Assembly (NCBI GenBank): GCA_963735035.1
Contig: CAVTJJ010000004.1
Location: 1,024,001-1,088,000 of the forward strand
Direction of reading: 5' to 3'
From: an uncultured candidate division Zixibacteria bacterium
GTDB lineage: Bacteria > Zixibacteria > MSB-5A5 > GN15 > FEB-12
Length of the DNA stretch: 64,000 bases
Made by a program: the position numbers and the translations under genes. A model generated the notes under the pieces. It saw only the letters and a program-made list of their open reading frames with translations. It was not told the origin of the DNA and ran no database searches. Below are positions 1,349-62,026 of the stretch, in pieces. Position 1 is the stretch's first letter. Every line of letters begins with the position of its first letter.

Positions 1349-1586
1349 TAATGCCGACCTGAGCGGCTGACTCTCGCTCACAGGCTGGTAAGGTCGTGTT
1401 GCGGATTTGAGACAAGCCCGTAACCAGCTTTGCGCCAATAAAATACCGGAAACGCTTTCAGGGCAGGCTAAGAGAGGAAAATGATTCCTGGTCTCTTAGA
1501 ACCAAGCTCCTACCGGGCAAGAAGATAGAGGATAGAACTCCCTTTTTCGCTGTTGCACACTCCAACCGCTTCGTATATTGAGACAT

Positions 1587-2075
1587 ATGGCTGGGAATAT
1601 GATGTGGGCTCCTTGGAGAGCCGCCTTTATTTTGGGCAAGAAAGAGAAGGGGTGTGTCTTCTGCAACCGGCTCGGGATGAAGGATACGGTCGAAAGCCTG
1701 ATACTTTATCGCGGCGAGAAGAACTTCGTCATTCTCAACAAATATCCTTACAACTCCGGTCATACGCTGGTGGTCCCCAATCGACACGTGGGACAGCTCG
1801 AAAAACTTACTGAAGCCGAAGCCGTTGAGTTCTTCGATCTGACTCGCAAGAGCGTCGCGATCATCAAGAATACTCTGAAGCCGCAGGCTCTGAACGTAGG
1901 TATGAATCTCGGCCGGATGTCCGGCGCCGGCATTCCGGGACACTTGCACATGCACATCGTTCCGCGCTGGAATGGTGACACTAACTTCATGCCGGTTCTC
2001 GGTCGTACTTCCGTAATTTCTGTTCCCCTGGAGCCCATCTGGAAAAAGCTTCGTCGGGAGTTCAGCCGCCTATGA
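1587..2075 (+). CDS. HIT-family nucleotide hydrolase (Ap4A phosphorylase/Fhit-like)
   Basis: WAPWR, CVFC, LNKYPYNSGH, HLHMHIVPRW histidine triad; ATG at 1587 lies 7 nt after TATATT. Confidence 0.9.
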   Translation: MAGNMMWAPWRAAFILGKKEKGCVFCNRLGMKDTVESLILYRGEKNFVILNKYPYNSGHTLVVPNRHVGQLEKLTEAEAVEFFDLTRKSVAIIKNTLKPQALNVGMNLGRMSGAGIPGHLHMHIVPRWNGDTNFMPVLGRTSVISVPLEPIWKKLRREFSRL

Positions 2076-3670
2076 AGAAGGGTACGATCCCGACCAAGTC
2101 GGAGCTGCTCCGACTTCAGAAGCTTTACAAGACCGACGAGAAGATCGGTGAGCGGTTGGGTGGCGCCCCGGCCTATCTGGTGGCCTACTGGCGGCGCAAG
2201 AAGGATGTCCCCAAGTATTCGCTGCCCAAGTTCTCTGAAATTGAAGTCCGAAATCTCTGGGAGCGATACGGTGACGACGAAAAGGCCGGACTTGAGTTGG
2301 GCATTTCCAAAGCCGCCTTTTACAATTGGCGCCGTCGCTATGGATTGCGACAGAAGCCGGAATTTCTCAAGCTCGAGCAATTGGAACTGAATTTCCCCGG
2401 CATGGTGGTGCCGTCGCACGCCAATTCTCTTTATGGACATCGGACCGTGGCGCAAAAGATTCTCGCAAGGCTGGCTGAACTTGAGCAAGTAGAGGTCGGA
2501 CAGGAAGTGGAAATCGAGCCTGATCTGACCGTCACGCCCGGCGGCGCAGCTCCGGCAGTGCGAGAGTTCCTCCGCCAGTCGGAACATGTCTGGAATCCAT
2601 CCCGTATTGTTCTTCTTCCCGGTCACGCCCCTGAGGATGCAAGCAGTTCGATCTCCGAGGGACATCAGCAAGTGCGGGATTTCGCCCGTAGGCAGAGTAT
2701 CAAAGCGTTCTACGATCTTCAGGAAGGCAACTGCCCGCAGATTGCTCTAGAGCGTGGTTATGTTACCCCGGGCAGTCTGATTATCGGTACCGGACGACAG
2801 ACCCTTGTTTACGGTGCGTTGTCGGCGATGGCTGTGACCGTCAGCCCCGCCGAGCTGGCAGCCGCGTGGGTAGGAGGCAAGCATCGTATCGTCGTGCCTG
2901 AGACGGTTCGCATTGTTATCAGCGGTCGCCGGGCGCGTGGTGTGAACGCGGTGGATATCGCTCTTTGTGTGATCAAACGACTGGCCGGAGAGGATCTCTC
3001 GGGCCGCGTCATCGAATACACCGGCGGTGTCATCTCACAGATGTCAATCGGCGAGCGCTGCACCCTGGCGGACGTTGTCCGCCGACACCGGGGCGTTCGC
3101 GGCGTGTGCGCCTATGATGCCACGACCCGTCGCTATCTGACCGGGCGAACTATGAATCGGTTCCAGCCGGTGATCCCGGACAAGGACGCCGAGTACCGGC
3201 AGATGTACCAGATTAACATCGATCAACTGACTCCACAGGGAGCGCCGCTCAATAAATTGTCGGAGGCTCGCGCCATCGCCGAGTTGCGAGACCTGCCGAT
3301 CCAACACATTCTGCTCGGGGGCTGTACTTGCGGACGTTTAGAGGATCTTCGGATCGCCGCTGAAATTATTCGCGGTCACGAAGTTCACGAAGGTTGTCGG
3401 CTTTATATCGTCCCCGGTTCACGCGCGGTCTTTCTCGAAGCGCTAAAGAAGGGGCTGATCCGGGTATTCGTCGAGGCCGGAGCGATTGTGGATCACCCCG
3501 GAAGTCTGATCGCTCTCCCTGCCCACACCGCGGGGGAGAAGGGCTTGACCACGTTTCGACTCGACTCTTCCGGACTCTCCGATGCTGATATAACGTTCTG
3601 TTCACCCGCGACCGCGGCGGCGTCGGCACTCCACGGTGTCATCACCGATCCGACCGGGTACGGACGGTAG
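2072..3670 (+). CDS. Tandem HTH domain fused to a degenerate aconitase/LeuC-family large subunit
   Basis: TVAQKILAR, GGCTCGRLEDLRIAAEI and SPATAAASALHGVITDP match LeuC/HacA; N-terminal ~105 aa holds two HTH-like repeats; catalytic and Fe-S motifs altered; ATGA overlap with the HIT gene. Confidence 0.8.
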   Translation: MKKGTIPTKSELLRLQKLYKTDEKIGERLGGAPAYLVAYWRRKKDVPKYSLPKFSEIEVRNLWERYGDDEKAGLELGISKAAFYNWRRRYGLRQKPEFLKLEQLELNFPGMVVPSHANSLYGHRTVAQKILARLAELEQVEVGQEVEIEPDLTVTPGGAAPAVREFLRQSEHVWNPSRIVLLPGHAPEDASSSISEGHQQVRDFARRQSIKAFYDLQEGNCPQIALERGYVTPGSLIIGTGRQTLVYGALSAMAVTVSPAELAAAWVGGKHRIVVPETVRIVISGRRARGVNAVDIALCVIKRLAGEDLSGRVIEYTGGVISQMSIGERCTLADVVRRHRGVRGVCAYDATTRRYLTGRTMNRFQPVIPDKDAEYRQMYQINIDQLTPQGAPLNKLSEARAIAELRDLPIQHILLGGCTCGRLEDLRIAAEIIRGHEVHEGCRLYIVPGSRAVFLEALKKGLIRVFVEAGAIVDHPGSLIALPAHTAGEKGLTTFRLDSSGLSDADITFCSPATAAASALHGVITDPTGYGR

Positions 3671-4654: not shown

Positions 4655-5623
4655 GTGGAAACGAGAGACGCGGTAGCCTTCGATCTTACCGATGTTCGCA
4701 CCCGAGCCGAATTGCTTCCACTTTGTCGTCTCGGACCCGGTGAACTGTGGCGCGACCCGGTCAACGGCCATATCGTCGCCTGCGGCGACGCCACCGATGC
4801 GGATTTCATCCGTTCAATATTCTCTGATGAGACGCGCCCGACCCTGGCCCTTCACGACCCACCCTACAATATGGTCGCGTTTGATCGTCGCCCTGTTACG
4901 GAATACGTCGACTGGTGCCGCAAGTGGATCGACCTTACGCATGACCTGCTTGCTGATGACAGCGCTCTCTATATCTGGCTGGGGGCGGATCAGAAGAATC
5001 ATTTCCAGCCGTTGCCGCAGTTCATGGCGATGATGGCCGATACCAGATTCGATTCGCGGTCATTCATCACGATGCGCAATCAACGTGGATACGGTACGCA
5101 AAAGAACTGGATGGCCGTACGTCAGGAGCTGCTGTATTACATCAAAGGTCAGCCGTCGTTTCAGGTCCAGTACACTGATATTCCCAAAATCCTTCGCGGA
5201 TATTACAAAGAAGTCAACGGCGCCCGCACCGAGAATCTGGAACGCTCACACTCCGATTGTATTCGTCCGGGCAACGTCTGGGTGGATATCCAGCAGGTGT
5301 TCTATCGCATGGAAGAAAATGTCCCCGGTTGTTACGCGCAGAAGCCGCTGAAGGCGATCGAGCGGATCGTGGCGTCGTCATCACAACCGGGGGATACGGT
5401 GATAGATTTCTTCGCCCATTCCGGCACGACTGTGCTCGCGTGCGAGCGACTGGGACGGCGCTGTGTGACGATTGATATTGATCCGATCTTCGCGGAGATT
5501 ACCATCCGTCGACTGGAGCATTATCGTGCGACCGGTAGAACCGGCTGGCAGAGGGAGAGCCCGTTTAGTGCGGACGTAGTCCCAGAGAAGTCGGCAGATG
5601 TGGGCATCTGCCGGGCACGCTGA
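4655..5623 (+). CDS. Site-specific DNA methyltransferase (N6-adenine/N4-cytosine, beta class), orphan
   Basis: DPPY catalytic motif precedes the DFFAHSGTT SAM-binding motif; QKPLKAIERIV. Confidence 0.9.
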   Translation: METRDAVAFDLTDVRTRAELLPLCRLGPGELWRDPVNGHIVACGDATDADFIRSIFSDETRPTLALHDPPYNMVAFDRRPVTEYVDWCRKWIDLTHDLLADDSALYIWLGADQKNHFQPLPQFMAMMADTRFDSRSFITMRNQRGYGTQKNWMAVRQELLYYIKGQPSFQVQYTDIPKILRGYYKEVNGARTENLERSHSDCIRPGNVWVDIQQVFYRMEENVPGCYAQKPLKAIERIVASSSQPGDTVIDFFAHSGTTVLACERLGRRCVTIDIDPIFAEITIRRLEHYRATGRTGWQRESPFSADVVPEKSADVGICRAR

Positions 5624-10145: not shown

Positions 10146-11108
10146 CTATAGACACTCCGGCAGCATGCCCGCCTGCGGCCCCGTGATAAACAAATAATCA
10201 ATCAGCATCGAGATATCCCCTATCGTAATGTCGTCGCAAGTGGGATTGATTCCGCCGGATTGATTGACATCAGCTTCGGCCAAACAACCTATGATTGCGT
10301 CGCAGGTTCCTCTCATAAACTTCGCATCAATTATTCGGCTAATGTCAGCGATCGTCGGTATATTCCCGTCGCTGCCGTCGGGGTCACCAACGTGGTAAGT
10401 GCAGCAAGAAGCGCAGTCGCCGTTGGGTGCTGCTGCCGCGTTTGGTGGTGCATTGACGGGCAAGCACGGATCAAGTAGTTCCCAGCAGCGTGGTCCGCTG
10501 ACACCAAGGCCGTTGTCCCACAGAGGGAAGTCAGATCCCGTGACAGGTGCAGCCCACTCCCAGGCGACATCAGATGCCATTGTATCAATACATAAGTGGA
10601 GACCGATATCGGCACGATTGCTCGTAAATTCCAACACCACTGCAATATCGTTGTCTGTTCCTCCGACAAAGCCTACGTCATAAAAATCTATGACGCAAAG
10701 AGAGTAAGCAGCGCGAGTATTAGATCCGGCCGAGCCTCCTGCGGAATCTGCCCCGGTATGTTCCGTCTTCCGATAGCTCAAACCGTTGTCGGTCGAGTAT
10801 CGGTGTATGCGCATTGGTCTAATAGTTTGTGGCAGGGCGGTTACCAGAGGCCCGTCCGACCCCTTGAAATAGCCCCAATCAGCACCATCAGGTGAGTAGA
10901 TTTCAAAACCGTTTTGGGTATTCCATCTACAAATAGAGGGATTGTTTCTGAGGTCGAAGCGAATGCTCGCACGGTGTATACGTCCGACCTGAAGTTGAGT
11001 GTCAGAAATTTCGTTTGTGACCCCGTCAATCGAGAGCACGCCCAAGTGCGTCTGTGCGAACGCGCCTGAGGCAGCAGCCAATGTCAGAAGTAGAATCCAG
11101 AGCTTCAT
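10146..11108 (-). CDS. Secreted protein with C-terminal dockerin-like domain (paralogue 4)
   Basis: Signal peptide; NGFEIYSPDGADW domain; CC..VGDPDG..IADIS..ID and EADVNQSGG..DDITIGDISMLIDYLF duplicated EF-hand-like motifs. Confidence 0.75.
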   Translation of the reverse strand: MKLWILLLTLAAASGAFAQTHLGVLSIDGVTNEISDTQLQVGRIHRASIRFDLRNNPSICRWNTQNGFEIYSPDGADWGYFKGSDGPLVTALPQTIRPMRIHRYSTDNGLSYRKTEHTGADSAGGSAGSNTRAAYSLCVIDFYDVGFVGGTDNDIAVVLEFTSNRADIGLHLCIDTMASDVAWEWAAPVTGSDFPLWDNGLGVSGPRCWELLDPCLPVNAPPNAAAAPNGDCASCCTYHVGDPDGSDGNIPTIADISRIIDAKFMRGTCDAIIGCLAEADVNQSGGINPTCDDITIGDISMLIDYLFITGPQAGMLPECL

Positions 11109-11134
11109 CAACGCACCTCTTCCTGTGTTGTGTT

Positions 11135-12115
11135 TCACATACACGCCGGCAGTGTGCCCGCCTGCGGACCGGTTATGAACAAGTAGTCAATCAGTGCTGA
11201 AACGTCGCCGATAGTGATGTCGTCTGCGTAAGGCGTGGCACCGCCCGATTGGTTGACGTCAGCTTCCTCAATACATGTGAGTGTCCCACCGGAGATGAAC
11301 AGGAAGTCGATCAAAGTAGAGATGTCTCCAACTGTAGGCTCATCATCTCCACTGTTGTTGGCGTCCCCCACACGAAGATTGCAGCAGCCCAGGCAGCCTA
11401 CCCGCGACATTGCAGTTCCCTCAGTCCCGGGCCTGCCGGCGGTCTTTACGCAGGGAAGATGATATATATCCCAACAGCGGGGGCCGCTTACACCAAGACC
11501 ATTATCCCATATCGGGAAGTCAGAACCGACGACCGGCGCCGCCCATTCCCAGACAGTAACGACTTGGGTTGTGTCGAGACACATGGTCTTCCCGGCATCA
11601 GTGGCAAGTGTCTGAAACTGAAGAATCACGGCAATTCCGTTAGTGCCACCAGGCCCGCCCACAAAGCCTGACGCGCCGGTTCCATCAAACGTTGCGAGCA
11701 TATAGGCTACTCGGCTGTTAGGGCCGGTGCTACCGCCCGGCTGGGTGTGACCGCCGGGTATTGTCGACGCGTAGAGGACGCCGTTGTTTGAGGATGTAAG
11801 ATATTTCTGCAATTTGGACACTGACGGTGGCAGATTGTCTACCATCTGACCGAATGTTCCCAGCAGGTTTACCCAATTGGCGCCGTCGGGGGAATACAAC
11901 TCAAAAGCGTTGGAACTGTTCCACCAACCTGACGGCAGCGCCGTAAAGTTGTACCGAATGCTCACATTGTGTAAGCTGCCGGCAATGAGCTTGAGTTGGC
12001 CCGCGTCATTAATTTGGTTTGTCACGTTGTCAATTGAAACCCTGCCCAGATGCGTCTGAGCGGATGTTCCCGAGGCAACAACCAATGTTAGAAGTACAAT
12101 CAACAGTCTCGTCAT
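11135..12115 (-). CDS. Secreted protein with C-terminal dockerin-like domain (paralogue 3)
   Basis: AGGAGG RBS, signal peptide, NAFELYSPDGANW domain, GDANNSGDDEPTVGDISTLIDFLF / EADVNQSGG motifs. Confidence 0.75.
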   Translation of the reverse strand: MTRLLIVLLTLVVASGTSAQTHLGRVSIDNVTNQINDAGQLKLIAGSLHNVSIRYNFTALPSGWWNSSNAFELYSPDGANWVNLLGTFGQMVDNLPPSVSKLQKYLTSSNNGVLYASTIPGGHTQPGGSTGPNSRVAYMLATFDGTGASGFVGGPGGTNGIAVILQFQTLATDAGKTMCLDTTQVVTVWEWAAPVVGSDFPIWDNGLGVSGPRCWDIYHLPCVKTAGRPGTEGTAMSRVGCLGCCNLRVGDANNSGDDEPTVGDISTLIDFLFISGGTLTCIEEADVNQSGGATPYADDITIGDVSALIDYLFITGPQAGTLPACM

Positions 12116-12138
12116 AGCCCGTCCTCCTTTTTCTTCCA

Positions 12139-13338
12139 CTACATGCACGCTGGCAAGGCGCCCTCTTGCGGACCGGTAATAAACAGGTAGTCGATTAACG
12201 CCGAAACGTCGCCGATAGTGATGTCGTCTGCGTAAGGCGTGGCACCGCCCGATTGGTTGACGTCAGCCTCTTCAATGCAATTCAGCCAGGCACCCGAAAT
12301 AAACAGGTGGTCAATTAAGGTCGAGATGTCGCCAACCGTCGGTTCATCTTCGCCGCTACCGTTCGCGTCGCCAGTGCGGGCGACACAGCAGTCGCATCCG
12401 TTAGTGGTGGAGGTCACATGGAGTGTGAAGAGATTGTACGAATCTCCGTCGGCTAGGAACTTAATATCAACGGAGCTTCCCGGGGCAAGCTGAGGATTGG
12501 GCCATGTCCACTGACCGCTCTGAGCATCCACCGAACCATAGTCGCCGTTATTGTATGGCGGCATCAGGCGGTACTCGACGGGCAAGTATTGGCAAGCCGG
12601 GAGGGCGCAAAGACTGTACGACGGCGAATGACAGTATCCGAAAGAAAGATTGCCTTCATTTCCCATGCACCACTGCGGACAGCAGTTGGGGCAGACGCCT
12701 ATCACCCAGCAGCGGGGGCCGTCCACACCGAGACCGTTGTCCCAGGCCGGGAAGTCCTCTTCACCGTTGGACCATTCCCAGGCCGTGATGGCTGCACAGG
12801 TGTCGAAACAGATGGTCTTGCCTTCGTCGGCCATACGGCTTTGGAACTGGAAAATCAGCGATATATCATTGTCCAGTCCACCTTCGTAACCGTCAGTTCC
12901 CTGCGCGTCAAAGGTGGCCAGAGAGAAACCTGCCCGGCTGAAAGGTCCGGTACTTCCACCGGCCGCATCTGCGCCGTTGTTGCCAGTGACAGTCCAGTTA
13001 GTACCGTCGTAATTGAAATACTTATTGAATTTACTTACCCCGGCACCAAGTTGGTTTACCAGAGGACCCCGAGTCCCTGTGAAACTGACCCAGTCGGCAC
13101 CGTCGGGCGAGTAAATCTCAAACCCGTTAGAACCATACCAGTGGGACAAGGGCGAGGTTGGGTTGCCGAGGAAATTGTATCTAACGGAAACGATATGGGT
13201 GCTTCCGGCCGACAGAGCGCTTGCACCCAAGGAATTGGTGATCCCGTCAAGTGAGACAACACCATTTTGGGCGAGCGCGTCGGTTCCGCAAGCGGCCGTG
13301 ATTAAGACCGCCGCAAAGATTACAAGAGAGCGTTTCAT
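12139..13338 (-). CDS. Secreted protein with C-terminal dockerin-like domain (paralogue 2, extra Cys-rich Ig-like segment)
   Basis: Signal peptide, NGFEIYSPDGADW domain, GDANGSGEDEPTVGDISTLIDHLF motif; ATGA overlap with the upstream gene. Confidence 0.75.
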   Translation of the reverse strand: MKRSLVIFAAVLITAACGTDALAQNGVVSLDGITNSLGASALSAGSTHIVSVRYNFLGNPTSPLSHWYGSNGFEIYSPDGADWVSFTGTRGPLVNQLGAGVSKFNKYFNYDGTNWTVTGNNGADAAGGSTGPFSRAGFSLATFDAQGTDGYEGGLDNDISLIFQFQSRMADEGKTICFDTCAAITAWEWSNGEEDFPAWDNGLGVDGPRCWVIGVCPNCCPQWCMGNEGNLSFGYCHSPSYSLCALPACQYLPVEYRLMPPYNNGDYGSVDAQSGQWTWPNPQLAPGSSVDIKFLADGDSYNLFTLHVTSTTNGCDCCVARTGDANGSGEDEPTVGDISTLIDHLFISGAWLNCIEEADVNQSGGATPYADDITIGDVSALIDYLFITGPQEGALPACM

Positions 13339-13805
13339 CGCACACCACCTTCCAGGCAAGGTAAGAGGCTCGAGCCGTAGGGGCCGGCAATAAACAGGTA
13401 GTTTATCAACAGGCTGACATCACCAATCGTAATATCGTCGATAGTTGGATTGGCCCCGCCGCTTTGATTTATATCTGCCTCTCCTATACACGGTATGAAG
13501 GTGGGTGTGACACCTTCGATGATGCCGCCGAGGATAGCGAGATCGACGATATCGCCGATGGTTGGCTCGTCACCGCCGGTTCCGTTGACATCACCTACGC
13601 GACCGATACAGCACGAAGCCAAAGCAGACACGGGGAATCCATTTCCGCCAACGTTGTCGGTCGCAGGATCGATGTCACTGCTGCGGGTTGCGGCGGTAGT
13701 GGTCGAGCCCCAGGCATCAGTCTGTGCCATCAGACTGCCTGGCAACATCCCCACCAGTAAAACTACAAGAATTAGCGACCAGTACTCATGATAATTACGC
13801 TTCAT
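13335..13805 (-). CDS. Small secreted dockerin-only protein (paralogue 1)
   Basis: GGAGG RBS, signal peptide, short linker, CCIGRVGDVNGTGGDEPTIGD / EADINQSGG motifs. Confidence 0.72.
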   Translation of the reverse strand: MKRNYHEYWSLILVVLLVGMLPGSLMAQTDAWGSTTTAATRSSDIDPATDNVGGNGFPVSALASCCIGRVGDVNGTGGDEPTIGDIVDLAILGGIIEGVTPTFIPCIGEADINQSGGANPTIDDITIGDVSLLINYLFIAGPYGSSLLPCLEGGVR

Positions 13806-16298: not shown

Positions 16299-18263
<1,965 letters not shown>

Positions 18264-22542: not shown

Positions 22543-25070
22543 ATGCGGTTGGAGGAAACACGATTGAGGACACCGTCCCCACTCTGTGTACTGGCGTGGC
22601 TGCTGGTACCAAGTCTGGGCACTCCGACCTATGCAGGGGTTAACGACAGTACGAAAGCACCGGAACGGGTCGTTCCGGAAATCCACGCCTACCGTGTGAA
22701 TCCGCACGCGCCGGTGATCGACGGCAATCTCGATGATCCGGTGTGGACTGGTTCGCACTTACAAAAGGTAGGCAACTTCACTCAAACCGATCCCGATGAG
22801 GGCAAGCAGCCCACCGAGTCGACCCTGGTCGCCGTTTCGTACGATGAGAATGCGCTCTACGTCGCGTTCTGGTGCTACGATTCGGAGCCCGACAAGATCG
22901 TGCGTCAACTCGTGCGGCGGGATCGATCGTCACCGTCAGACGCGGTAAGCCTTCGGGTCGACGCTTACCACGACCATCAGACCGGATTCGTATTTACGGT
23001 CCATGCGGCCGGGAACCAGCGTGACCTGCGGGTCTACAACAACACCAACATGGATGAATCCTGGGACGGCGTCTGGAGCTCGGCCGTCCGCGAACAACCG
23101 TGGGGATGGTCGGCTGAAATCGCAATTCCCTACCACTGTCTTCGGTTTCCCGAACAGGCTGAACACACTTGGGGGATAGACTTCATTCGCACCATCGGGC
23201 GCAAGAACGAATGGGAGTCCTGGGCCTTTGTGCCCAGCAAGGTGGGCGGGTTTGCGTCGAACTTCGGCCACCTGACCGGACTTACCGGAATTGTACCGAC
23301 ACGACACCTCGAGGTGATGCCATACGCGGTTTCGAATCTCGAGACCAAGCCGTCGGGTCGTTGGGTCGAAGGGAGTAATGTATTCGGAAATGCCGGAGTT
23401 GATGTCAAATACGGCATCTCCAGCAATCTTACGTTGGACGCCACCATCAATCCCGATTTCGGCCAGGTCGAGCTGGATCAACCGGTTTTGAATCTCTCGA
23501 CTTACGAGACCTGGTTCTCCGAAAAGCGACCGTTCTTTATTGAAGGCTCGGATCTGTTCGCTACTGATTTCACGCTCTTTTATTCTCGACGCATCGGCCG
23601 CTCACCGGTTTTCCGGTGAAGGACCCGTTTCTGTTCAAAGAACTGGAACGCCCACGCGCCTCGACAATCCTCGGTGCCGCCAAGCTGGCGGGGAAATTGG
23701 GAGACCGGACGTCAATTGCGGTTCTTGCAGCAGTCACCGACCGGGAGAAATCAAGATACGTCGATACCGTAGTTCATTACGAACAAGACAGCACCGGCCA
23801 ACTTGTCCCACGCGACACTACTTTCTCCTTCCATACCGGAGTGGTCGAGCCGCAGGCGGGGTACACGGTCGTGCGGGTCAAGCAGGACTTCCTCGCTCGT
23901 TCGTCGGCAGGTCTTATGCTGACGGTCGCAAGTCAGGATACCCGCTATCCAGCCGTGACCGGTGGGGGAGACTGGCGGCTCTACACGAACGATGGCAAAT
24001 GGTACGTGTCCGGTCAGTCGATATTCAGCCGGGTAGATCCGAATCACACCGGTTTCGGCTTGATGATGAGTGCCGGAAAGGATGCCGGCGAACATGTACT
24101 CGCTCAAGTCAGCCTGACTATCGAAGATCCGTACCTGAATATCAACCGGCTCGGTTACATCTCGCGCAACAATCGCCGTAGTTTCGGGTCGTGGGTGCAG
24201 TATCGTACCACCGACGATTGGTGGATTATCCGGAACTCATACAACAATTTCAACTTCTGGTACGAAAAGAACTACGAGGGAGTTGAAATCAGCAAGGGGG
24301 GAAACTGGAACCTCAATCTGGACTTCACCAACAACTGGTATCTAGGATGCGGAGCGAGCATTCAGGCGGAGAAGTACAACGACCTCGAAACCCGCGGGCA
24401 TGGTATTTGGCAGTGGCCGATTGCGCCAACTTACAGTTGGTGGTTCAACCTGAGCACTGATCCGCGCCGCATGTTTTCTTTCACACTCAACCCCGGTTCC
24501 GGTGGCGATCGCGGCGGTCTTTGGTGGGCGAATTATATCGGGGTCAATTTCCGTCCCCGATCCAACATGGAATTTTCGCTCGGCACGAACTATACCCGCA
24601 ATTTTCACGTCACCCGGTGGGTTGATAATCCCACCAACTCCACGACCGTTTTTGCTGACCTGGATCGCGACGAGATCAGCCTGAGTGCGAGCGCCGGCAT
24701 CATGTTCAGCCGCAATTTCTCCTGCCAGCTTTCGGCCGAGGGACTCCTTTCGGGGCTGGACTATCGAAACTATCGACCCTATCTCGGCGGCAACGAGTAC
24801 GGACCGCCGGGGTCATGGCCTGAGGGAACCTATTCGGGAGTGGGAAACAACCCCAACTTCGATTCCAACCTGGGGGCTCTCAACTCAACCTTACTGCTGC
24901 GGTGGGAATACCGACCGGGAAGTACTATCTATTTGGTTTGGACCAGGTCCAAGTCGGATTTCGATTCCAGGCGGAACCACCTGGATGTGAAGAAAGATAT
25001 GGAGCGATTCTTCTCCGCCGGGTCGGAGAACCTGTTTCTGGTCAAGGCCAGCTACTGGATGAATATCTGA
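22543..25070 (+). CDS. CBM9-like + DUF5916 outer-membrane protein (one apparent frameshift near 23610)
   Basis: PVIDGNLDDPVW, WSAEIAIP, TINPDFGQVELD, EKRPFFIEG, LFYSRRIG, then LRWEYRPGSTIYLVW...VKASYW in the next frame. Confidence 0.8.
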
Positions 25071-53770: not shown

Positions 53771-53950
53771 AGAACATCTGACAATTGGTCTAACGCACGT
53801 TTTACGCGAATAAATACACATGAAGCCGTTCTTGGCTAGTTTTATAAGTTGGACAGGAAAATCGGGACCGCCCTAGACGTATGTCTTTGGTTGCCCGTTT
53901 TCTATGGACGAGAAAACAGGTAACGCACAAGAGAGTAACACGGAGTGCAC

Positions 53951-56900
53951 ATGTATCAGCCCAAACTTTTCCGGTTTGCGTTCCAGCCCCTCTGCGCCAC
54001 ATCGAATTTCACAAGACCAATCAAGACGCTGTTCTTGCTTGGTCTTTTTGCTGTGGTATTGGGTGCCGGTTCCTCGGTTAATGCCGCGGCAACTATTCGA
54101 ACTGATTCGCTGGCCTATGAACCGGGTTCGACCGTCGGGATCATCGGCACCAGCTTCATGGCCGGTGAAAACGTTAACCTGGTCGTGACCTACATTGACG
54201 GAACCCCGCTTGCTCCGGAAGTCCAGAGCAGCTGGACCGTCGTGGCCAGCGGCACCGGCACGATTGAAACCGGTGGTACATCCGGTTACAGCGGTCTGGA
54301 CGGAGGAGAGTTCAAGGGGTTTTCCACTTTCTGGACGATGTTCACGGGTGCGGCACCGGGGGATTCACTCCTGCTGACCGCCACGGGCGGAACCTCGGGA
54401 TACGTGGCAACTACGACGCTCCTTTGTCCGTCAAGCAACTTCGACCAGCTTCAAAATGGCACTCCAACGAACCCGTCGTGGGCAAATGGCAACATCAACC
54501 AGAATAATTCCTGCTATACTGAGGGAAACTCAGTCCCGTTCCGATTCTTCGTGCAAAGCCTCAGTTCCAATTCCACGCATACATTCCAGATATCGTTTGC
54601 TGCCACGAACGGTGGAAAGCACGCTTACGACTATCTTACCCAGTACAACCTGAGCGAGTCGGGGGCGATCATCACGGTGGGCGGTGAATGTAGTTCGGTA
54701 AGCCAGGCAGCGCCGGGTGATTGTGCGACCCCGGTCGCCGTGGTGGCGCTTCGTGATCCTCGTCTAAGCGCCAACTACAACTCCACACCCGGACCGGAGT
54801 TGTCGGGTATCCTTAATCTCTCGTTCCCGATCGACGGCCCTGGCAGTCTGTTTGCCTACAACGCCACCAACGTTACGATCAGCAAGTTCACGATCGGAGG
54901 AACGGTCTCCAATCGCACCTTGACGGCGACCGTTACCTTCAAGACCCTTCATAGCGGCAGTGCCGGTTTCTTCTGGGGCGGGCACATGGCTGAAGGTGTG
55001 ACTCCCGGCTGGGGTGTCAACATGGGGGCCGGTTCGATCACCGGTTCTTCATGGCATATGGATGCCGGTAAGGTCGACGGGTCCGGCGGGATGGTTGGCC
55101 GATCCGTTCAGAAGGGTACTATTTGTGTCGCCCCGACGGTTACTCTTTCCTGCAGTGCCGGTCCTTATTGTACCAACACCACCCAGACCTGCTCTGCGAC
55201 GGCCGGAGCTGGGACTTACTTCTGGACGATCACCGGTGGTACGCTTCTCACCGGCCAGGGTACCAATTCGATCACTTATAAGATTACCGCCTTGGCCGGA
55301 AGCCCGGTTACCGTCGCGGTGAACGCGAGCAACAATAACGGTGGCTGTGCCGGGAGTACTTGCAGCACCGACGCGAGCACACAGTTTACGGCCGAGGACT
55401 GCTGTACCGTGGCGATTACGTGCCCTCCGACCGCTACCGTTGCTTGCAATCAATCCATCAATCCCAGCAATACCGGAACGGCTACTTTCACGACTACCGG
55501 TTCCTGCCCGCTTCCGATAACTGTAAGTTACACCGATACCGAGACCGCCGGTGCCTGCCCGCAAGCGAAGACTGTTTCCCGTCTGTGGAAGGCCACCGAC
55601 GCCAACGGCCAGGTACGTGCTCAGTGCACCCAGACGATCAATGTTATTGATAATGTCGCGCCGGTGCTTTCCAGCGCTCCGGCCAATGTGACGGTTGAAT
55701 GCAGCAGCATTCCGGCTCCGGCCACTCTGACCGCCACCGACAACTGCGATCCGTCGCCGACCGTTGCAATGACGCAGACCACGACTCCTGGTTCCTGCGC
55801 CCAGCGGTATACTTTGACCCGCACCTGGACCGCGACCGATCACTGCGGCAACGCTTCGTCACGCTCGCAGGTCATTACGGTACAGGACACGCAGGCTCCT
55901 ACCATTACGTGTCCGCAGACAGTCACGGTGCAATGCGCCAGTCTGGTGCCGGCGCCTAATACGGCCCTGGTAGTAGTGAGCGACAACTGTGATCCGGCTC
56001 CGGTGGTTGCGTTTGTGAGCGACGTTTCCAACAATCTGACCTGCCCCGAGACGATCACCCGCACCTATCGGGCGACCGATGCCTGTGGCAACTCGGCCAC
56101 TTGCACCCAGCAAATCGTCGTTCATGATACGACCGCGCCGGTTGTGACTTGCCCTGCTCCTGTTTCGGTGCAGTGTCTGGCCGACGTGCCCGCTCCGAAT
56201 CTGGCTTTAGTGAGTGTGACCGACAATTGCGATCCGAACCCGGTCAAGGCCTGGGTGAGCGATCAACTTGGCACCACTACCTGTCCCAAGACCATTACCC
56301 GGACTTACAAAGCTACCGACGCCTGTGGTAACATCGGAAGCTGCACGCAGACTATTACAATAGATGATACTACGCCGCCGGCGATTACCTGCCCGGCTAA
56401 TACGTCGGTGTTGTGCGGCCAGTCCAGCGATCCTGCCCACACCGGCTATGCGACTGCAACCGACAACTGTACCCCCACTGGCAGTATCGTGATTACATAC
56501 GCAGACGTAGCCAACGGCGTAATTACCCGCACCTGGACTGCGACCGATGCCTGTGGCAACCAATCGACTTGCGTTCAAACTATCAACACTCCTCCGGATA
56601 CGGCTCCGCCGGTAATTACATCCTGTGCGGCGCCGGTAACGGTTGACTGCTTCGCCGATGTTCCCGCGCCGAACCCGGCGCTGGTCGTGGCCACTGATGC
56701 CTGTGACCCGAATCCGGTGACTACTTTTGTAAATGACGTACAAACCGGTTCGAGCTGTCCGTATACGGTTACCCGGACTTATCGCGTAACGGACGCTTCG
56801 GGCAACTCGTCAACCTGTACTCAGACAATTACAATCGACGACAACACGCCGCCAGTATTGGTCGGCACGCCGGCCAATGTAACGGTGAGCTGCGATGCTA

Positions 56901-59900
56901 TCCCGGCCCCGGCGACAGTGACGGCGACCGACAATTGCGCCGGAGTGACGGTCAACTATGACCAGTCCGATACTCCCGGCGCCTGTGCTCAGGCCAAGAC
57001 GATCACGCGCACCTGGACCGCGACCGATTTCTGCGGCAACCAGACGGCCTACTCGCAGACTATCACGGTTGTAGACAACACCGCGCCGGTGATTACGAGC
57101 TCTCCGGGTGCTGTCTCAGTACAGTGTGTAGCGAATATCCCGGTTCCTAATACTACCCTGGTAACGGCCACCGACAATTGCGATCCTGCTCCTGTGATTT
57201 CGTTCGTGAGCGATGTTTCCAACGGCCTGACTTGTCCGGAGACTTTCACGCGCACCTACAAGGCCCTGGATGCCTGTGGCAATGTGTCGTTCTGTACGCA
57301 GACGATAACGGTTCACGATACCACGCCGCCGACGATTTCCGGTCCGGCACCGGTCTCAGTTCAGTGTCTGACAGCAGTCCCGACACCCAACCCGGCTCTG
57401 TGCTCGGCGAGCGACAACTGTGACCCGACGCCCACTATCACCTTCGTGAGCGATGTGCCGAACGGTTCCGGCTGCCCGATAACCATCACTCGCACCTACA
57501 ATGCGACTGACGATTGCGGCAACTCGGTGACTTGTACTCAGACAATTACGGTTCACGACCAGACCGCGCCGCAGATCACCGACCCCGCGCCGGTCTCCGT
57601 ACAGTGTATGGGAGAAGTGCCTCAGCCGAATCCGACCCTGTGCACGGCTACTGACAACTGCGACCCGACCCCGACCGTCACGTTTGTGAGCGACGTCCCG
57701 AACGGCTCCGGTTGCCCTATGACTATCACTCGCACCTACAAGGCGACCGACGATTGCGGCAATGAGGCGACCTGTACGCAGACGATCACGGTGAATGACC
57801 AGACGCCGCCGCAAATTACCTGTCCGGCGCCGGTTTCGGTCCAGTGTCTGTCTCAGGTGCCGACACCTAACCCGGCTTTGTGTGTGGCGACCGACAACTG
57901 TGATCCGAATCCGACCGTTGCTTTTGTGAGCGACGTTCCGAATGGCACCGGTTGCCCGATGACCATCACTCGTACTTACAAGGCGACGGATGATTGCGGC
58001 AACGAGGCGACCTGTACGCAGACAATCACGGTCAATGATCAGACCCCCCCGCAGGTAACTTGTCCCGCGCCGATATCGGTACAGTGCGCGTCGCTGGTGC
58101 CGGCTCCGAACACGGCTCTGTGTATGGCGACCGACAACTGTGACCCGAATCCGGTTATCGCTTTCGTGAGCGACGTCTCCAACGGTCTGTCGTGTCCGGA
58201 GACGATCACCCGTACTTACAAGGCGACCGACGATTGCGGCAACGTCGCGACCAGCACTCAGACGATTACGATACATGATTTGACTGCGCCGCAGTTGACC
58301 TGCCCGGCGCCGGTAACGGTTCAGTGTATGTCGGCGGTTCCGCAGCCGAACCCGACACTGTGCACGGCCACTGACAATTGCGATCCGACTCCGACCGTTA
58401 CTTTTGTAAGCGATGTTCCGAACGGTTCCGGTTGTCCTCTGACCATCACGCGTACCTACAAGGCGACCGATGATTGCGGCAACGAGACATTCTGCACGCA
58501 GACGATTACGGTGAACGACCAGACCCCGCCGCAGATTTCCTGTCCGGGTCCTCTTGCTTTCTCCTGCGTAGGCGACGTGCCGCAGGCGAATCCGGCTCTT
58601 TGCACTGCCACCGACAATTGTGATCCGAATCCGGTGGTGGTGTGGGTGAGCGATGTGCCTCTGGGCTCGTGCCCGATGACCATAACTCGCACTTACAAGG
58701 CTACTGATAATTGCGGCAATCAGGCTACCTGTCAGCAGATCATCACGGTGCATGACCAGACGCCACCACAAATGGTGGGATGTCCGGCCAACGTGACCGT
58801 GGAATGCAACAATATCCCGGCGCCGGCCAATGTGACGGCCACGGACAACTGTTCCGGTGTAACGGTTGCCATGGTGGAGACCACCATTCCCGGTGCGTGC
58901 GCTCAGTTCTACACTATCACTCGCACATGGACGGCTACCGACGGCTGTAACAATCATGCTTCATGCCAGCAGACCATAACGGTCCATGACACCACGCCGC
59001 CGCAAGTTACCTGTCCCGATGCGATTACGGTTAACTGTCTTGGCGAGGTGCCGTCGCCAAATACGGCGCTTGTCATAGCCAACGACAATTGCGATCCCAA
59101 TCCCACGATCACTTTCGTGTCCGACGTTCGCGAAGGGACCGGCTGCCCGATGTACGTCGCTCGCACTTACCGTGCGGTCGATGCCTGTGGCAATGCGGCT
59201 ACCTGCACGCAGATGATTACTATAGATGATCGGTTGGCGCCGCAATTGTCCGGTTGCCCGCAGAATGTCACAGTGAGCTGTGGCCAGATTCCGCCGGTCG
59301 CTACCGTGACGGCCACCGACAACTGTGACGGTACGGTGAGCGTCACTCTCAACGAGGTTACTACTCCCGGGAGCTGTACTTACAACTACACGGTAACTCG
59401 TACCTGGACCGCGTCGGACATCTGTGGGAACCAGGCGCAGTGTCAACAGGTCATTACGGTTCGTGACGACACCGACCCTGAGATGACCTGCCCGGCCCCG
59501 CTCACGGTACAGTGTATCGGCGAAGTGCCACAGCCGAATCCGGCATCGGTGACCGTGTCCGACAACTGCGATCCGCATCCGGTCGTCTCGTTCGTGAGCG
59601 ACGTGCGCGGGCCTCAAAGCTGTTCGACCCTGATCATGCGTACTTATCGGGCCGTGGATGCCTGTGGCAACGAGGCCACTTGCACGCAGATGATTACGCT
59701 GAACGATGAGACACCGCCTGTCTTTACAACTTTCCCAACCGATCAGAACTTGTCCCAGTGTCAACCGACTCAGATTTGTTTGCCGGTGGTGGCTTCCGAC
59801 AATTGCCTTGGCAGTGTGGTCTATTCCGTGACGGCCGGTCAGGGCGCCATAGCCAACGGGCAATGGTGTTTCACACCGACCGCTTCGACCTCATTCGCGG

Positions 59901-62026
59901 TTACCGTCAGAGCGGCTGATACCTGCGGCAATTTTGTAGAGAGAACCTTTAACCTGGCCGTTCAAGTCAACCGGGTGCCGTCGTTCACCAATTGTCCGAC
60001 CAATGCCCAGGTTCACTGGGGTCAGACTTACACGGTTGATCTTGATGCGACCGATCTGGATGCCGGTCAGACTTTGACCTACAGCCTCTGTCCGAGCGCT
60101 CCGGCCGGAGCGTCGATAAACCCGACCACCGGCGTGCTGACATTTGCCGCGACCGCGCACGACATCTGCGATCCGAGCCTGTGTGTCATCGTCAAGGACA
60201 ACTGCAATTCGGCCGATACCTGCTCGTTCGACATCTGTGTCACCAACGATCCGCCGGTGATCACGTGTCCGGAATCGCAGACCCTTTGCTACGGCTATCC
60301 GCTCGAGACCCAGGTGACTGCGACGGATCCCGACCACGGCCCGTACCAGTTCTTCCATCTGGTCAACGGTCCGGCCGGTCTGCAGGTCAACGCCACTACG
60401 GGTCAGGTGACCTGGCCGAATCCGGTTCCCGGTTCGTACCAGGTGTGCGTCACGGTTACCGACAGTGCTGCGGTCTGTTCGCCGTGCAGCCCGTCGAATT
60501 CCGATACTTGCTGTTTTGCGGTGAACATTGTATCGCTCGACCTGGTCATCGAAAAACTTCACGATCAGATTCAGGGTCAATACACTGACGTCAGCATTGA
60601 TTTCAAGAACCAGGGCACGAACTGGCCGATAGCCGGTTTCGACCTGCTCATACAGTATGACGGCACGGCGCTGAGCTTCCAGATGGCGACCGAAGGCAAG
60701 TTCTTCACCGACTGTGCCTGGGAGTATTTCACCTATCGCTTTGGCGCCAATGGCAACTGCGGCGGTGGCGCATGTCCGTCGGGTATAGTACGCATCGTCG
60801 GGATGGCCGAAACTTCGGGCGGCAACATGGCCAACCACCCGGACTGCTATTCCAACGACGGCATTCCGAATCCAGGCCCCGGATCGACGACCTCAACCGA
60901 AATGGCGAATCTCAGATTCCTGGTCTCGGATAACCGTACGCTGGAATGTCAGTACGTTCCGATTCGTTTTGTCTGGTACGATTGCGGCGACAACGCCCTT
61001 TCGAACGTGCGTGGCGATACCATGTACGTATCACACTTCGTCTATGACTACGCCGGCGAGACCGGCCTTCCCCCGGTGGTGCAGTGGAACGACATTACCG
61101 GTCTGGACAATGACATGCCGACATTCACCGGTGCTCCGTCGCCGCAGTGTGATACCAGGTTTAAGTTCTGGCCGGTACGTTGTGCCAACTTCTACAACGG
61201 CGGTGTGGATATAATTTGCGCCGATTCGATCGACGCTCCTGGCGACATCAACCTGAACAACGTGGCGTATGAAATCGCCGACGCCGTAATGCTGACCAAT
61301 TACTTCACCATCGGCATGTCGGCTTTCGAAGGACACATTGAAGGCTCAATTGCGGCGTCCGATGTCAACCGTGACGGTCTCACGCTGTCAGTCGCCGACC
61401 TGGTTCTGCTGATTCGGGTGGTGGTAGGTGACTGCCTGCCGTACGCCAAGGAAATGCCGATGGCGCCTGTGGCCGCGGGATATTCCGTCGACGACGGAGT
61501 GGTGGCGGTATCGACCGACGTTGATATAAGCGGCGCTGCTCTCGTGGTGCGCGGAAACGTGGCGCCGGAGCTGCTGGCTACCGGTATGGACATGGCTTAC
61601 GCGTACGACGGCACGGTCACACGGATCGTTGTAACACCGCCGGTCAACGCGACTTCGATGCATTCCTTCCGCGGGGCCTTCATAAAGGGTATATACGGCG
61701 ACATCGTGTCGCTTGAGTTGGCCACGGCTCAGGGTGTCCCGGTGACGGCTCGAAACGTACCCGCGCGGTACTCGCTGAGCCAGAACTATCCGAACCCGTT
61801 CAACCCGATGACGACAGTCGAGTTTGCCTTACCGGCGGCCGGAGACTACCGTCTGACGATCTACAACATTGAAGGTCGCCAGGTGGATGTGTTCGAAGGA
61901 CGCGCGGACGCGCCGGGTGTATTCCGGATTGACTGGAATGCAGTTGACCGGGCCAGCGGTGTGTACCTGTACCGACTTGATGCCGGGAAGTTCTCACAGA
62001 CCCGCAAGATGTTGCTCTTGAAGTAG
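53951..62026 (+). CDS. Giant secreted protein: 18 Cys-rich HYR-like repeats, cadherin/Ig-like domains, cohesin-like and dockerin-like domains, T9SS-type CTD
   Basis: Signal peptide; repeats TCP..V.C..P...ATDNCDP...TITRTY.ATD.CGN; IAGFDLLIQYD; GDINLN..IADAV / SDVNRDG..SVADLV; YSLSQNYPNPFNP...TRKMLLLK. Confidence 0.9.
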   Translation: MYQPKLFRFAFQPLCATSNFTRPIKTLFLLGLFAVVLGAGSSVNAAATIRTDSLAYEPGSTVGIIGTSFMAGENVNLVVTYIDGTPLAPEVQSSWTVVASGTGTIETGGTSGYSGLDGGEFKGFSTFWTMFTGAAPGDSLLLTATGGTSGYVATTTLLCPSSNFDQLQNGTPTNPSWANGNINQNNSCYTEGNSVPFRFFVQSLSSNSTHTFQISFAATNGGKHAYDYLTQYNLSESGAIITVGGECSSVSQAAPGDCATPVAVVALRDPRLSANYNSTPGPELSGILNLSFPIDGPGSLFAYNATNVTISKFTIGGTVSNRTLTATVTFKTLHSGSAGFFWGGHMAEGVTPGWGVNMGAGSITGSSWHMDAGKVDGSGGMVGRSVQKGTICVAPTVTLSCSAGPYCTNTTQTCSATAGAGTYFWTITGGTLLTGQGTNSITYKITALAGSPVTVAVNASNNNGGCAGSTCSTDASTQFTAEDCCTVAITCPPTATVACNQSINPSNTGTATFTTTGSCPLPITVSYTDTETAGACPQAKTVSRLWKATDANGQVRAQCTQTINVIDNVAPVLSSAPANVTVECSSIPAPATLTATDNCDPSPTVAMTQTTTPGSCAQRYTLTRTWTATDHCGNASSRSQVITVQDTQAPTITCPQTVTVQCASLVPAPNTALVVVSDNCDPAPVVAFVSDVSNNLTCPETITRTYRATDACGNSATCTQQIVVHDTTAPVVTCPAPVSVQCLADVPAPNLALVSVTDNCDPNPVKAWVSDQLGTTTCPKTITRTYKATDACGNIGSCTQTITIDDTTPPAITCPANTSVLCGQSSDPAHTGYATATDNCTPTGSIVITYADVANGVITRTWTATDACGNQSTCVQTINTPPDTAPPVITSCAAPVTVDCFADVPAPNPALVVATDACDPNPVTTFVNDVQTGSSCPYTVTRTYRVTDASGNSSTCTQTITIDDNTPPVLVGTPANVTVSCDAIPAPATVTATDNCAGVTVNYDQSDTPGACAQAKTITRTWTATDFCGNQTAYSQTITVVDNTAPVITSSPGAVSVQCVANIPVPNTTLVTATDNCDPAPVISFVSDVSNGLTCPETFTRTYKALDACGNVSFCTQTITVHDTTPPTISGPAPVSVQCLTAVPTPNPALCSASDNCDPTPTITFVSDVPNGSGCPITITRTYNATDDCGNSVTCTQTITVHDQTAPQITDPAPVSVQCMGEVPQPNPTLCTATDNCDPTPTVTFVSDVPNGSGCPMTITRTYKATDDCGNEATCTQTITVNDQTPPQITCPAPVSVQCLSQVPTPNPALCVATDNCDPNPTVAFVSDVPNGTGCPMTITRTYKATDDCGNEATCTQTITVNDQTPPQVTCPAPISVQCASLVPAPNTALCMATDNCDPNPVIAFVSDVSNGLSCPETITRTYKATDDCGNVATSTQTITIHDLTAPQLTCPAPVTVQCMSAVPQPNPTLCTATDNCDPTPTVTFVSDVPNGSGCPLTITRTYKATDDCGNETFCTQTITVNDQTPPQISCPGPLAFSCVGDVPQANPALCTATDNCDPNPVVVWVSDVPLGSCPMTITRTYKATDNCGNQATCQQIITVHDQTPPQMVGCPANVTVECNNIPAPANVTATDNCSGVTVAMVETTIPGACAQFYTITRTWTATDGCNNHASCQQTITVHDTTPPQVTCPDAITVNCLGEVPSPNTALVIANDNCDPNPTITFVSDVREGTGCPMYVARTYRAVDACGNAATCTQMITIDDRLAPQLSGCPQNVTVSCGQIPPVATVTATDNCDGTVSVTLNEVTTPGSCTYNYTVTRTWTASDICGNQAQCQQVITVRDDTDPEMTCPAPLTVQCIGEVPQPNPASVTVSDNCDPHPVVSFVSDVRGPQSCSTLIMRTYRAVDACGNEATCTQMITLNDETPPVFTTFPTDQNLSQCQPTQICLPVVASDNCLGSVVYSVTAGQGAIANGQWCFTPTASTSFAVTVRAADTCGNFVERTFNLAVQVNRVPSFTNCPTNAQVHWGQTYTVDLDATDLDAGQTLTYSLCPSAPAGASINPTTGVLTFAATAHDICDPSLCVIVKDNCNSADTCSFDICVTNDPPVITCPESQTLCYGYPLETQVTATDPDHGPYQFFHLVNGPAGLQVNATTGQVTWPNPVPGSYQVCVTVTDSAAVCSPCSPSNSDTCCFAVNIVSLDLVIEKLHDQIQGQYTDVSIDFKNQGTNWPIAGFDLLIQYDGTALSFQMATEGKFFTDCAWEYFTYRFGANGNCGGGACPSGIVRIVGMAETSGGNMANHPDCYSNDGIPNPGPGSTTSTEMANLRFLVSDNRTLECQYVPIRFVWYDCGDNALSNVRGDTMYVSHFVYDYAGETGLPPVVQWNDITGLDNDMPTFTGAPSPQCDTRFKFWPVRCANFYNGGVDIICADSIDAPGDINLNNVAYEIADAVMLTNYFTIGMSAFEGHIEGSIAASDVNRDGLTLSVADLVLLIRVVVGDCLPYAKEMPMAPVAAGYSVDDGVVAVSTDVDISGAALVVRGNVAPELLATGMDMAYAYDGTVTRIVVTPPVNATSMHSFRGAFIKGIYGDIVSLELATAQGVPVTARNVPARYSLSQNYPNPFNPMTTVEFALPAAGDYRLTIYNIEGRQVDVFEGRADAPGVFRIDWNAVDRASGVYLYRLDAGKFSQTRKMLLLK
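55398..59710 (+). repeat. Intragenic tandem repeats of ~80 codons (~240 bp), 18 units
   Basis: Counted from the translation; units 9-14 (~57320-58760) are the most similar. Confidence 0.9.

Follow-up and report, generated by a model that had tools for sequence, protein, structure and literature searches.

Archaeal-type LeuC/HacA large subunits (MJ0499 and MJ1003; structures 4KP1, 4NQY and 4KP2) adopt a three-domain aconitase fold, and domain 4 or the small subunit LeuD completes the substrate site of the active enzymes. The same fold takes part in nucleic-acid-binding regulation in IRP1/cytosolic aconitase (2B3X, 3SNP), a four-domain protein that switches between an iron-sulphur (Fe-S) enzyme and an RNA-binding apo form and binds RNA with its enzyme cleft. 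Fusion of a helix-turn-helix (HTH) to an enzyme or enzyme-like fold is a design principle known from MocR/GabR, PutA, BirA and NadR, whose enzyme-like domains keep their cofactor or ligand site (pyridoxal phosphate, flavin adenine dinucleotide or biotinyl-AMP). Here, we analysed a 64-kb stretch of DNA from an uncultured candidate division Zixibacteria bacterium (contig CAVTJJ010000004.1, positions 1,024,001 to 1,088,000; hereafter the window), which carries a HIT-family gene overlapping a gene for a 532-aa protein in which two tandem HTH units are fused to a LeuC/HacA-like body with a degenerate active site. The dead active site, the near-invariant HTH and the constant pairing with HIT indicate that this fusion protein probably acts in regulation instead of being the enzyme named in databases. 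To our knowledge, the aconitase/LeuC fold has not been reported as an HTH-fused regulator, and full-text literature searches found neither such a regulator nor a description of this HTH/LeuC fusion. The available part of a paper on the evolution of the aconitase superfamily makes no mention of an HTH (PMC8184944).

By sequence and predicted structure, the body of the 532-aa protein has a LeuC/HacA fold whose catalytic site is dead. Pfam Aconitase matched the fusion protein at 6.3e-45, with the LeuC-like part spanning residues 125-528, and the closest solved relative of the body by sequence was 4kp1_A, the large subunit of isopropylmalate isomerase from M. jannaschii (phmmer, 8.5e-60), the archaeal-type large subunits being ~31% identical to the window protein. 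An AlphaFold2 model of the full fusion protein, built from a 53-sequence family alignment, reached a mean predicted local distance difference test score (pLDDT) of 84.0 and a predicted template-modelling score of 0.76. Foldseek aligned this model to 4KP1 with an E value of 1.7e-41, a TM(target) of 0.88 and a root-mean-square deviation (rmsd) of 2.9 Å, the values for 4KP1, 4KP2 and 4NQY together ranging from 1.7e-41 to 1.3e-38, 0.87-0.90 and 2.4-2.9 Å, followed by aconitases, IRP1 (a structural relative at E ~1e-17 to 1e-18) and AcnX. The fold-level motifs GRLEDLR, PGS and SPATAA are likewise common to the window protein and archaeal LeuC/HacA. By contrast, a residue-by-residue alignment to 4KP1 revealed that MVHD is changed to VTPG (P156, G157), FDHQ to PGHA (G184, H185), GVCHQ to GNCPQ (P222), GADSHT to GTGRQT (239-244), GSCTNGR to GGCTCGR (416-422), PSCSAC to PGSLIA (476-481) and STSNRNFRGR to TTFRLD--SS (493-500). 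This alignment reproduced every motif change listed in a preliminary description of the locus, which had been made from the sequence without database searches and had proposed a full-length, catalytically dead LeuC body, and it added the loss of the N258/E262 equivalents, which are D334 and R338. Scored over 15 canonical positions (His-Asp, Asp-His, His, Asp-Ser-His, Asn, Glu, Asn-Arg and three Cys ligands), the window protein retains 2/15, H185 and C418, and its cluster-ligand positions read C418, S478 and A481, leaving one of the three Cys. Canonical members of the superfamily have more than 15 of 20 active-site residues identical, with the ligands Cys358/421/424 in mAcn numbering, according to the available part of the superfamily paper (PMC8184944).

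The fusion is an old, conserved family that is not peculiar to this assembly; the preliminary description had named uniqueness to the assembly as grounds for its refutation. Among 5.8 billion clusters searched, 881 matched, and the best 120 of these were all 50-81% identical to the window protein; those of the 120 with a taxon name were overwhelmingly Zixibacteria or GN15, and 116 of the 120 were full length (520-550 aa). Fusion relatives occur in 185 species-level genomes (GTDB contigs, one genome per species), essentially all Zixibacteria, and 80 of the 185 relative-encoding stretches were kept as loci. The NCBI titles of the loci name 39 Zixibacteria, 24 "Ignavibacteriales", 2 Calditrichota and 1 Deferrimicrobiota, and in a FastTree tree of 63 fusion proteins these labels are intermixed down to near-identical pairs, which we read as labelling noise inside one lineage. 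A query with the body only (300 aa; targets of 165-525 aa), aimed at close relatives that lack the fusion, gave 13 matches of 41-62% identity, at least some of which are truncated forms and none of which lies on a contig longer than 8.7 kb, followed by ordinary LeuC-like proteins of 26-32% identity; this search is word-dependent and hence not exhaustive. No defence-system model of PADLOC matched the fusion protein.

The loss of the active site extends through the family. Each of the 116 members keeps one to nine of the 15 canonical residues, never more than nine, and the three ligand positions are Cys in 60, 30 and 22 of them; all three are Cys in just 3/116 and none in 36/116, and no other combination of Cys, His, Asp or Ser is conserved in their place among the 116 members and 16 distant members. 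Among the 49 non-overlapping open reading frames (ORFs) that the window has at a length of 90 aa or more (Pfam E <= 1e-5; all gene-content negatives apply to this 64-kb window), there was no Aconitase_C/LeuD and no second aconitase-family ORF, as the preliminary description had noted for leuD. All 19 NCBIfam models listed, the best of which belong to archaeal-type LeuC/HacA families, scored under their curated cut-offs (best, PRK00402, 293.6 bits versus 385), and the evidence says that the fusion protein cannot be the dehydratase named in databases. A residual dehydratase or isomerase activity, with another cluster or none, a LeuD-like partner perhaps encoded elsewhere and a PutA-like autoregulatory HTH, would be compatible with the complete preserved fold and with AcnX, which shows that the superfamily tolerates different cluster types and ligand positions (available part of PMC8184944), and the search for LeuD covered the 64-kb window, leaving a distant LeuD possible. 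We nevertheless regard it as very improbable, given that the family holds no alternative set of catalytic or ligand residues, that the window encodes no partner for the catalytic base, be it domain 4 or a small subunit, and that one Zixibacterial genome (locus L076) has a separate canonical enzyme. In that genome, a fused homoaconitase, which unites the domains of both subunits (large and small) in one chain of 661 aa, is encoded at L076:1137-3122 (+), 6.8 kb upstream of the dead fusion gene; it scores 860 bits with TIGR00139 (cut-off 529.9), keeps the canonical motifs and shares 23% identity with the window protein.

Database sources label the relatives LeuC, homoaconitase or aconitase large subunit, which would suit a true 3-isopropylmalate dehydratase large subunit, and oddities of the window protein could in principle be assembly errors. 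Indel errors are indeed present in this assembly, because two genes of the window are broken: the FtsH homologue at 16299-18263 (+) has its FtsH_ext, AAA and Peptidase_M41 pieces in separate ORFs in at least three frames (2, 0, 1, 2), reflecting either assembly indel errors or a pseudogene, and the DUF5916 protein at 22543-25070 (+) is split into two ORFs (22543-23619 and 23616-25070) with a 4-nt overlap that cover consecutive parts of the Pfam model. However, the fusion ORF has the full length seen in its 116 relatives, its substitutions recur in the 80%-identical relatives P0002 and P0003, the losses are family-wide in independent assemblies, and the protein stays under every NCBIfam cut-off, making an explanation by annotation or assembly hardly credible.

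Selection acts very differently on the two parts of the protein. Over the 116 members, the top residue of a column has a mean frequency of 0.88-0.92 within residues 1-100, compared with about 0.56-0.68 within the body. The mean column identity is 85% for the N-terminus and 73% for HIT; in 16 distant representatives, the N-terminus is still 54-82% identical to that of the window protein and the body 20-45%. The ratio of nonsynonymous to synonymous substitution rates (dN/dS), taken from ten independent locus pairs with similar dS for both parts and with three values missing where dS was saturated, lay at 0.000-0.023 in the N-terminus and at 0.06-0.19 in the body. The body thus evolves about ten times faster than the HTH module, and these ratios indicate that both parts are functional, with the HTH module as the core. 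Columns of the former active site are among the most variable of the family, both in the 116 members and in the 16 distant ones. In the wider family, only K129, P150, D151, P233, D295, E315, G318, L332, D349, D370, G416, P448, G470 and G522 of the body are at least 88% conserved, all in motifs common to ordinary LeuC; fold-type residues (G, P, D) dominate, and no new conserved pocket residues replace the old active site.

This pattern bears on the proposal, made in the preliminary description, that the body is a sensor, in which a metabolite, metal or redox signal in the old active-site cleft of the dead LeuC would switch the HTH. Such a sensor would resemble the enzyme-derived regulators MocR/GabR, PutA and BirA in architecture, the body is under purifying selection, and arginines conserved specifically in Zixibacteria (R207, R286, R289, R353, R354, R359 and R464) could bind an anionic ligand, e.g. 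a nucleotide polyphosphate. Conversely, the positions of the old pocket are hypervariable, only fold-type residues are conserved in the wider family, and the cleft lacks domain 4 or LeuD. The "new CTC motif", put forward earlier as a metal-binding or redox feature, is not a feature of the family, C420 being Cys in 3/116 and C418 in 60/116 members. The analogy to IRP1 drawn in the same description is loose, as domain 4 is missing and the protein cannot alternate with an Fe-S form. A conserved small-molecule pocket in the body is unlikely, and we consider the sensor doubtful, though of some probability, since a ligand site would be compatible with the purifying selection and with the family-specific arginines.

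By structure prediction and homology, the N-terminus forms two tandem HTH units related to HTH_23 arrays, in agreement with the earlier reading of two HTH-like repeats. Repeat 1 (residues 5-52) aligned to repeat 2 (53-100) with an hhalign E value of 4.1e-5 (33% identity, 39 columns), and AlphaFold2 predicted two three-helix units with helices at 9-19, 22-28 and 34-43 and at 56-66, 69-76 and 80-89, in the same pattern in the full-length and domain-only models (pLDDT 89-94 in the domain model, ~92 for unit 1). Direct Pfam matches were weak (HTH_23 0.0078, HTH_Tnp_1 0.0081, HTH_50 0.032). We searched a profile of residues 1-118 (70 sequences) against 1.84 billion representative proteins, which returned only 149 proteins at E <= 1e-3; the top matches were fusion proteins of 483-587 aa or fragments thereof, with Aconitase present in 14/14 fusion-length matches scanned (two of them under the gathering score), and proteins with multiple HTH_23 units came next. 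These multi-HTH proteins matched the profile at 5e-28 to 1e-13 and have HTH_23 scores of their own of 1e-17 to 2e-60, and hhalign of the profile against one such array (P0171) gave a probability of 98.1% and an E value of 6.6e-14. Six of them (P0171, P0179, P0181, P0186, P0196 and P0200) contain 3-6 tandem HTH_23 units with the repeat signature LQK.Y.TD..IGE.LG, common with the HTH of the fusion, and tandem HTH_23 array proteins may be the evolutionary source of the module. Matches in the ESM Atlas were all of HTH_23 type, with best scores of 0.77-0.78, below the level of a trustworthy lead. PF28406, listed on two family members, was rejected as the HTH because it is also present on unfused LeuC-like proteins of 432-444 aa.

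The N-terminal module is basic (isoelectric point 9.8 versus 7.1 for the body), including the ends of both recognition helices (WRRKK and WRRRY), and we infer from these sequence features that it would bind DNA sequence-specifically. It occurs as a single copy both in the window and in the loci (79 matches, one of them in the window), and a tblastn search of phage and plasmid collections with the module gave no match. In the linker that follows, K95, P96, F98, L99, L101, E102, Q103, L104 and E105 are invariant in 70 sequences; residues 99-109 have a pLDDT below 50 in the full model, and residues 97-104 are helical in the domain model. Given that this KP.FLKLEQLE stretch is invariant yet unstructured in the model, it suggests a partner-binding motif, and the linker is probably a flexible tether or such a motif.

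The fusion gene is preceded by a HIT gene whose positions and overlap agree with the preliminary description; the HIT stop codon TGA and the fusion start codon ATG have ATGA in common because the junction reads CTATGAAG. The HIT protein matched Pfam HIT with 59.1 bits (gathering score 21.5; 6.9e-16), DcpS_C at 1.1e-06 and the NCBIfam ATP adenylyltransferase model NF052622 with 144.7 bits, under its cut-off of 290. Its closest solved relatives are 6af2_A (3.1e-34) and the M. tuberculosis AP-4-A phosphorylase (3ANO/3WO5, ~1e-33), and the HLHMHIV triad and a CxFC motif are invariant across 61 aligned orthologues, so that the upstream gene product appears, by sequence, to be an intact HIT enzyme resembling phosphorylases of diadenosine tetraphosphate (Ap4A). 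A survey of HIT synteny, suggested earlier, by tblastn placed the HIT gene directly upstream and on the same strand in 80/80 loci. The genes overlap by 4 nt in 47 and by 1 nt in 8 of 58 HIT/fusion pairs (together 55/58; the row of the canonical homoaconitase ORF of L076 excluded), the other three values being -11, -20 and +5, and the ATGA overlap indicates translational coupling. A mirror-tree comparison yielded no specific signal of co-evolution between HIT and the body, as the distance correlation of the pair (r 0.41, partial r 0.28) was lower than that of the control, the body and a neighbouring methylase (r 0.55, partial r 0.48).

Alternatively, the HTH protein might bring HIT to nucleic-acid ends, where the enzyme would remove adenylate or NpnN (dinucleoside polyphosphate) groups from DNA or RNA, in the manner of aprataxin or of the decapping of Np4N-capped RNA, without any control of transcription. 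HIT enzymes acting on nucleic-acid ends exist, aprataxin being a HIT protein with a DNA-binding finger, and the obligate coupling of HIT and fusion in one operon and the DcpS_C match would fit this role. Np4N mRNA caps, mentioned in the available part of a paper on HIT proteins and Ap4A, count on the same side (PMC7705103). However, the closest HIT relatives are Ap4A phosphorylases acting on free nucleotides, repair or RNA-decay genes are not consistently linked among the neighbour clusters of the loci, and the large dead enzyme body would be left unexplained, which makes this targeting role improbable.

Taking these observations together, we favour the explanation that the fusion protein is a DNA-bound regulator, with the dead body as a scaffold or docking platform and HIT as a nucleotide-responsive partner, and give it a probability of roughly 0.5. 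The near-invariant, basic, bipartite HTH, laid out like the DNA-binding domains of Tc1/mariner transposases, would be the working core, and the conserved flexible linker would connect it to a LeuC/HacA fold that no longer has its Fe-S ligands and its catalytic residues and may be retained by purifying selection as a structural domain, serving as a scaffold for oligomerisation, as a platform for docking, or in both ways. The two genes would form an operon, probably leaderless, in which the fusion is translated by coupling to HIT; as the coupled HIT is intact, the two proteins may act as one module. The HIT enzyme would bind or cleave dinucleoside polyphosphates as the nucleotide-responsive partner and the HTH protein would be the DNA-bound output, similar to HINT1, which may hold MITF until Ap4A releases it; that the HIT protein HINT1 regulates the transcription factor MITF via Ap4A is described in the available part of PMC7705103.

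Several points weigh against this explanation. The Pfam HTH scores are under gathering (HTH_23 16.5 versus 24.6, HTH_Tnp_1 16.8 versus 24.1 and HTH_50 14.4 versus 27), and the N-terminal profile found no solved relative among PDB sequences, the best match (E 0.042) being an unrelated enzyme. A fold search with the domain model gave no match at E <= 0.001 (best E 0.048, TM 0.33); the top non-significant matches were all bipartite, DNA-bound HTH structures (Mos1, tandem engrailed, Myb R2R3, IstA, Tc3, DUX4 and SETMAR), which, for a predicted model, is consistent with such a fold and not proof of it. The conserved body arginines could form a ligand or nucleic-acid site, favouring the sensor. A DNA target did not emerge, since 7-mer enrichment in 64 upstream versus 337 control regions found only promoter-like words and the imperfect palindrome upstream of the HIT gene (Table 1) is confined to one sub-clade. 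Finally, contact between HIT and the fusion protein is deduced from operon coupling, and HIT might simply be a housekeeping enzyme that clears Ap4A and happens to share the operon.

Upstream of HIT, the candidate regulatory palindrome occurs once in the window versus 0.05 expected, and a looser form of it lies 75-92 nt upstream of the HIT start in 13 loci, with 7 matches elsewhere in 2 x 1.04 Mb. The palindrome-like motif CTAYC-N3-CAA-N3-GATAG keeps a fixed distance to HIT in the window and in 13 loci of one sub-clade. In 65/66 upstream regions, a hexamer agrees with TATAAT in at least 4/6 positions, and in 42/66 its last base is 7-9 nt before the HIT ATG. Because this -10-like box abuts the start codon, there is no room for a Shine-Dalgarno sequence, which suggests, from the sequence pattern, that the HIT/fusion mRNA is leaderless and bicistronic across the phylum. 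The gene downstream of the fusion is preceded by a spacer of 230 nt and its own Shine-Dalgarno sequence. In 47/80 loci, a gene for an N6/N4 DNA methyltransferase (61-76% identity throughout the phylum) is found no more than 8 kb from the operon. It has at least two arrangements, upstream and divergent in 36 loci, with only 183-412 bp to the HIT start in 16 of these, and downstream on the same strand in 11, and it is absent from 13 loci having at least 5 kb on both flanks; it looks like a conserved orphan methylase with a loose link to the operon, perhaps a functional one. A bolder version of the regulator, which we regard as speculative and unlikely, is that HIT and the HTH-pseudo-LeuC protein form a bacterial transcription switch responsive to Ap4A (NpnN), a prokaryotic equivalent of HINT1-MITF, in which a HIT dimer would dock on the dead LeuC body, perhaps in the cleft vacated by the cluster and the absent LeuD domain, or on the linker helix, alarmone binding or phosphorolysis would release or activate a phylum-wide global regulator, and the bipartite HTH would read a conserved DNA signal, possibly written by the linked N6/N4 methyltransferase.

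Table 1. Coordinates of the HIT/fusion locus and neighbouring elements in the 64-kb window.
Feature	Position	Strand	Evidence or remark
Imperfect palindrome CTACCGGGCAAGAAGATAG, candidate regulatory site	1510..1528	+	~59-77 nt upstream of HIT start codon
-10-like hexamer TATATT	1574..1579	+	Ends 7 nt before HIT ATG; read from sequence
HIT-family gene, 162 aa	1587..2075	+	ATG at 1587, stop 2073-2075; Pfam HIT 6.9e-16; HLHMHIV triad intact
HTH/pseudo-LeuC fusion gene, 532 aa	2072..3670	+	ORF
ATGA start/stop overlap of HIT and fusion genes	2072..2075	+	Junction sequence
HTH unit 1, residues 9-44, recognition-helix end YWRRKK	2096..2203	+	Predicted helices, invariant columns
HTH unit 2, residues 56-89, recognition-helix end NWRRRYG	2237..2338	+	Predicted helices, homology to HTH_23 arrays
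Linker, residues 90-124, short helix KP.FLKLEQLE	2339..2443	+	Alignment, AlphaFold2
LeuC/HacA-like body, residues 125-532, aconitase domains 1-3, degenerate active site	2444..3670	+	Pfam, NCBIfam, Foldseek
N6/N4 DNA methyltransferase	4655..5623	+	Pfam N6_N4_Mtase 8.1e-30

Elsewhere in the window, a 2693-aa protein at 53945-62026 (+) carries 11 HYR_4C repeats and a Por_Secre_tail domain, a sorting domain of type IX secretion, and four consecutive, partly overlapping ORFs of 332, 337, 406 and 156 aa at 10146-13805 (-) have no Pfam match at E <= 1e-5. Rfam (gathering scores) and ARAGORN found no match anywhere in the window.

Hundreds of database entries name this protein a 3-isopropylmalate dehydratase, homoaconitase or aconitase large subunit, and this misnaming overstates the leucine and lysine pathways whenever the metabolism of Zixibacteria is reconstructed. 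An aconitase-fold pseudoenzyme with what is probably a dedicated DNA-binding module would lengthen the list of enzyme folds recruited to regulation, and the family is a clean example of domain-specific selection, in which the added HTH is nearly frozen and the old catalytic site drifts. The mode of Ap4A signalling in bacteria is a long-standing question, and the obligate pairing with an Ap4A-phosphorylase-like HIT suggests a transcription factor responsive to dinucleoside polyphosphates and makes the pair a candidate for such signalling. Both proteins are small enough for expression and in vitro assays, though the phylum is uncultured.

Compared with archaeal LeuC/HacA, the window protein lacks the CxxC motif, keeps one of the three Cys ligands, has replaced the catalytic DH, H, DSH, N/E and NR residues, has no adjacent small subunit and gains a module of 124 residues comprising the HTH and the linker, staying under the family cut-offs. 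Unlike IRP1, it has neither cluster binding nor domain 4, and carries a separate HTH module. The Tc1/mariner and IS630-type transposases (Mos1 5HOO, Tc3 1U78 and SETMAR 7S03) likewise contain two tandem three-helix HTH units joined by a short linker, and the Pfam relatives of the HTH module are of the HTH_23, HTH_28 and HTH_Tnp_1 type; however, the fusion lacks a transposase catalytic domain and terminal repeats, is single-copy with conserved synteny, and its fold matches to these proteins are not significant. The closest model for the pairing of a HIT protein with a DNA-binding factor under a dinucleoside polyphosphate signal is the mammalian HINT1-MITF-Ap4A system (PMC7705103, as far as the available part describes it). 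That system is eukaryotic, its basic helix-loop-helix leucine zipper factor is unrelated, the genes do not form an operon, and HINT1 is of the Hint type and not of the phosphorylase type, whereas the Zixibacterial contact is presumed from gene order. In contrast to the enzyme-derived regulators, the old site of the Zixibacterial protein is not conserved; the principle of an enzyme-derived regulator is known, but the LeuC fold in that role with a HIT partner is, as far as we have checked, new.

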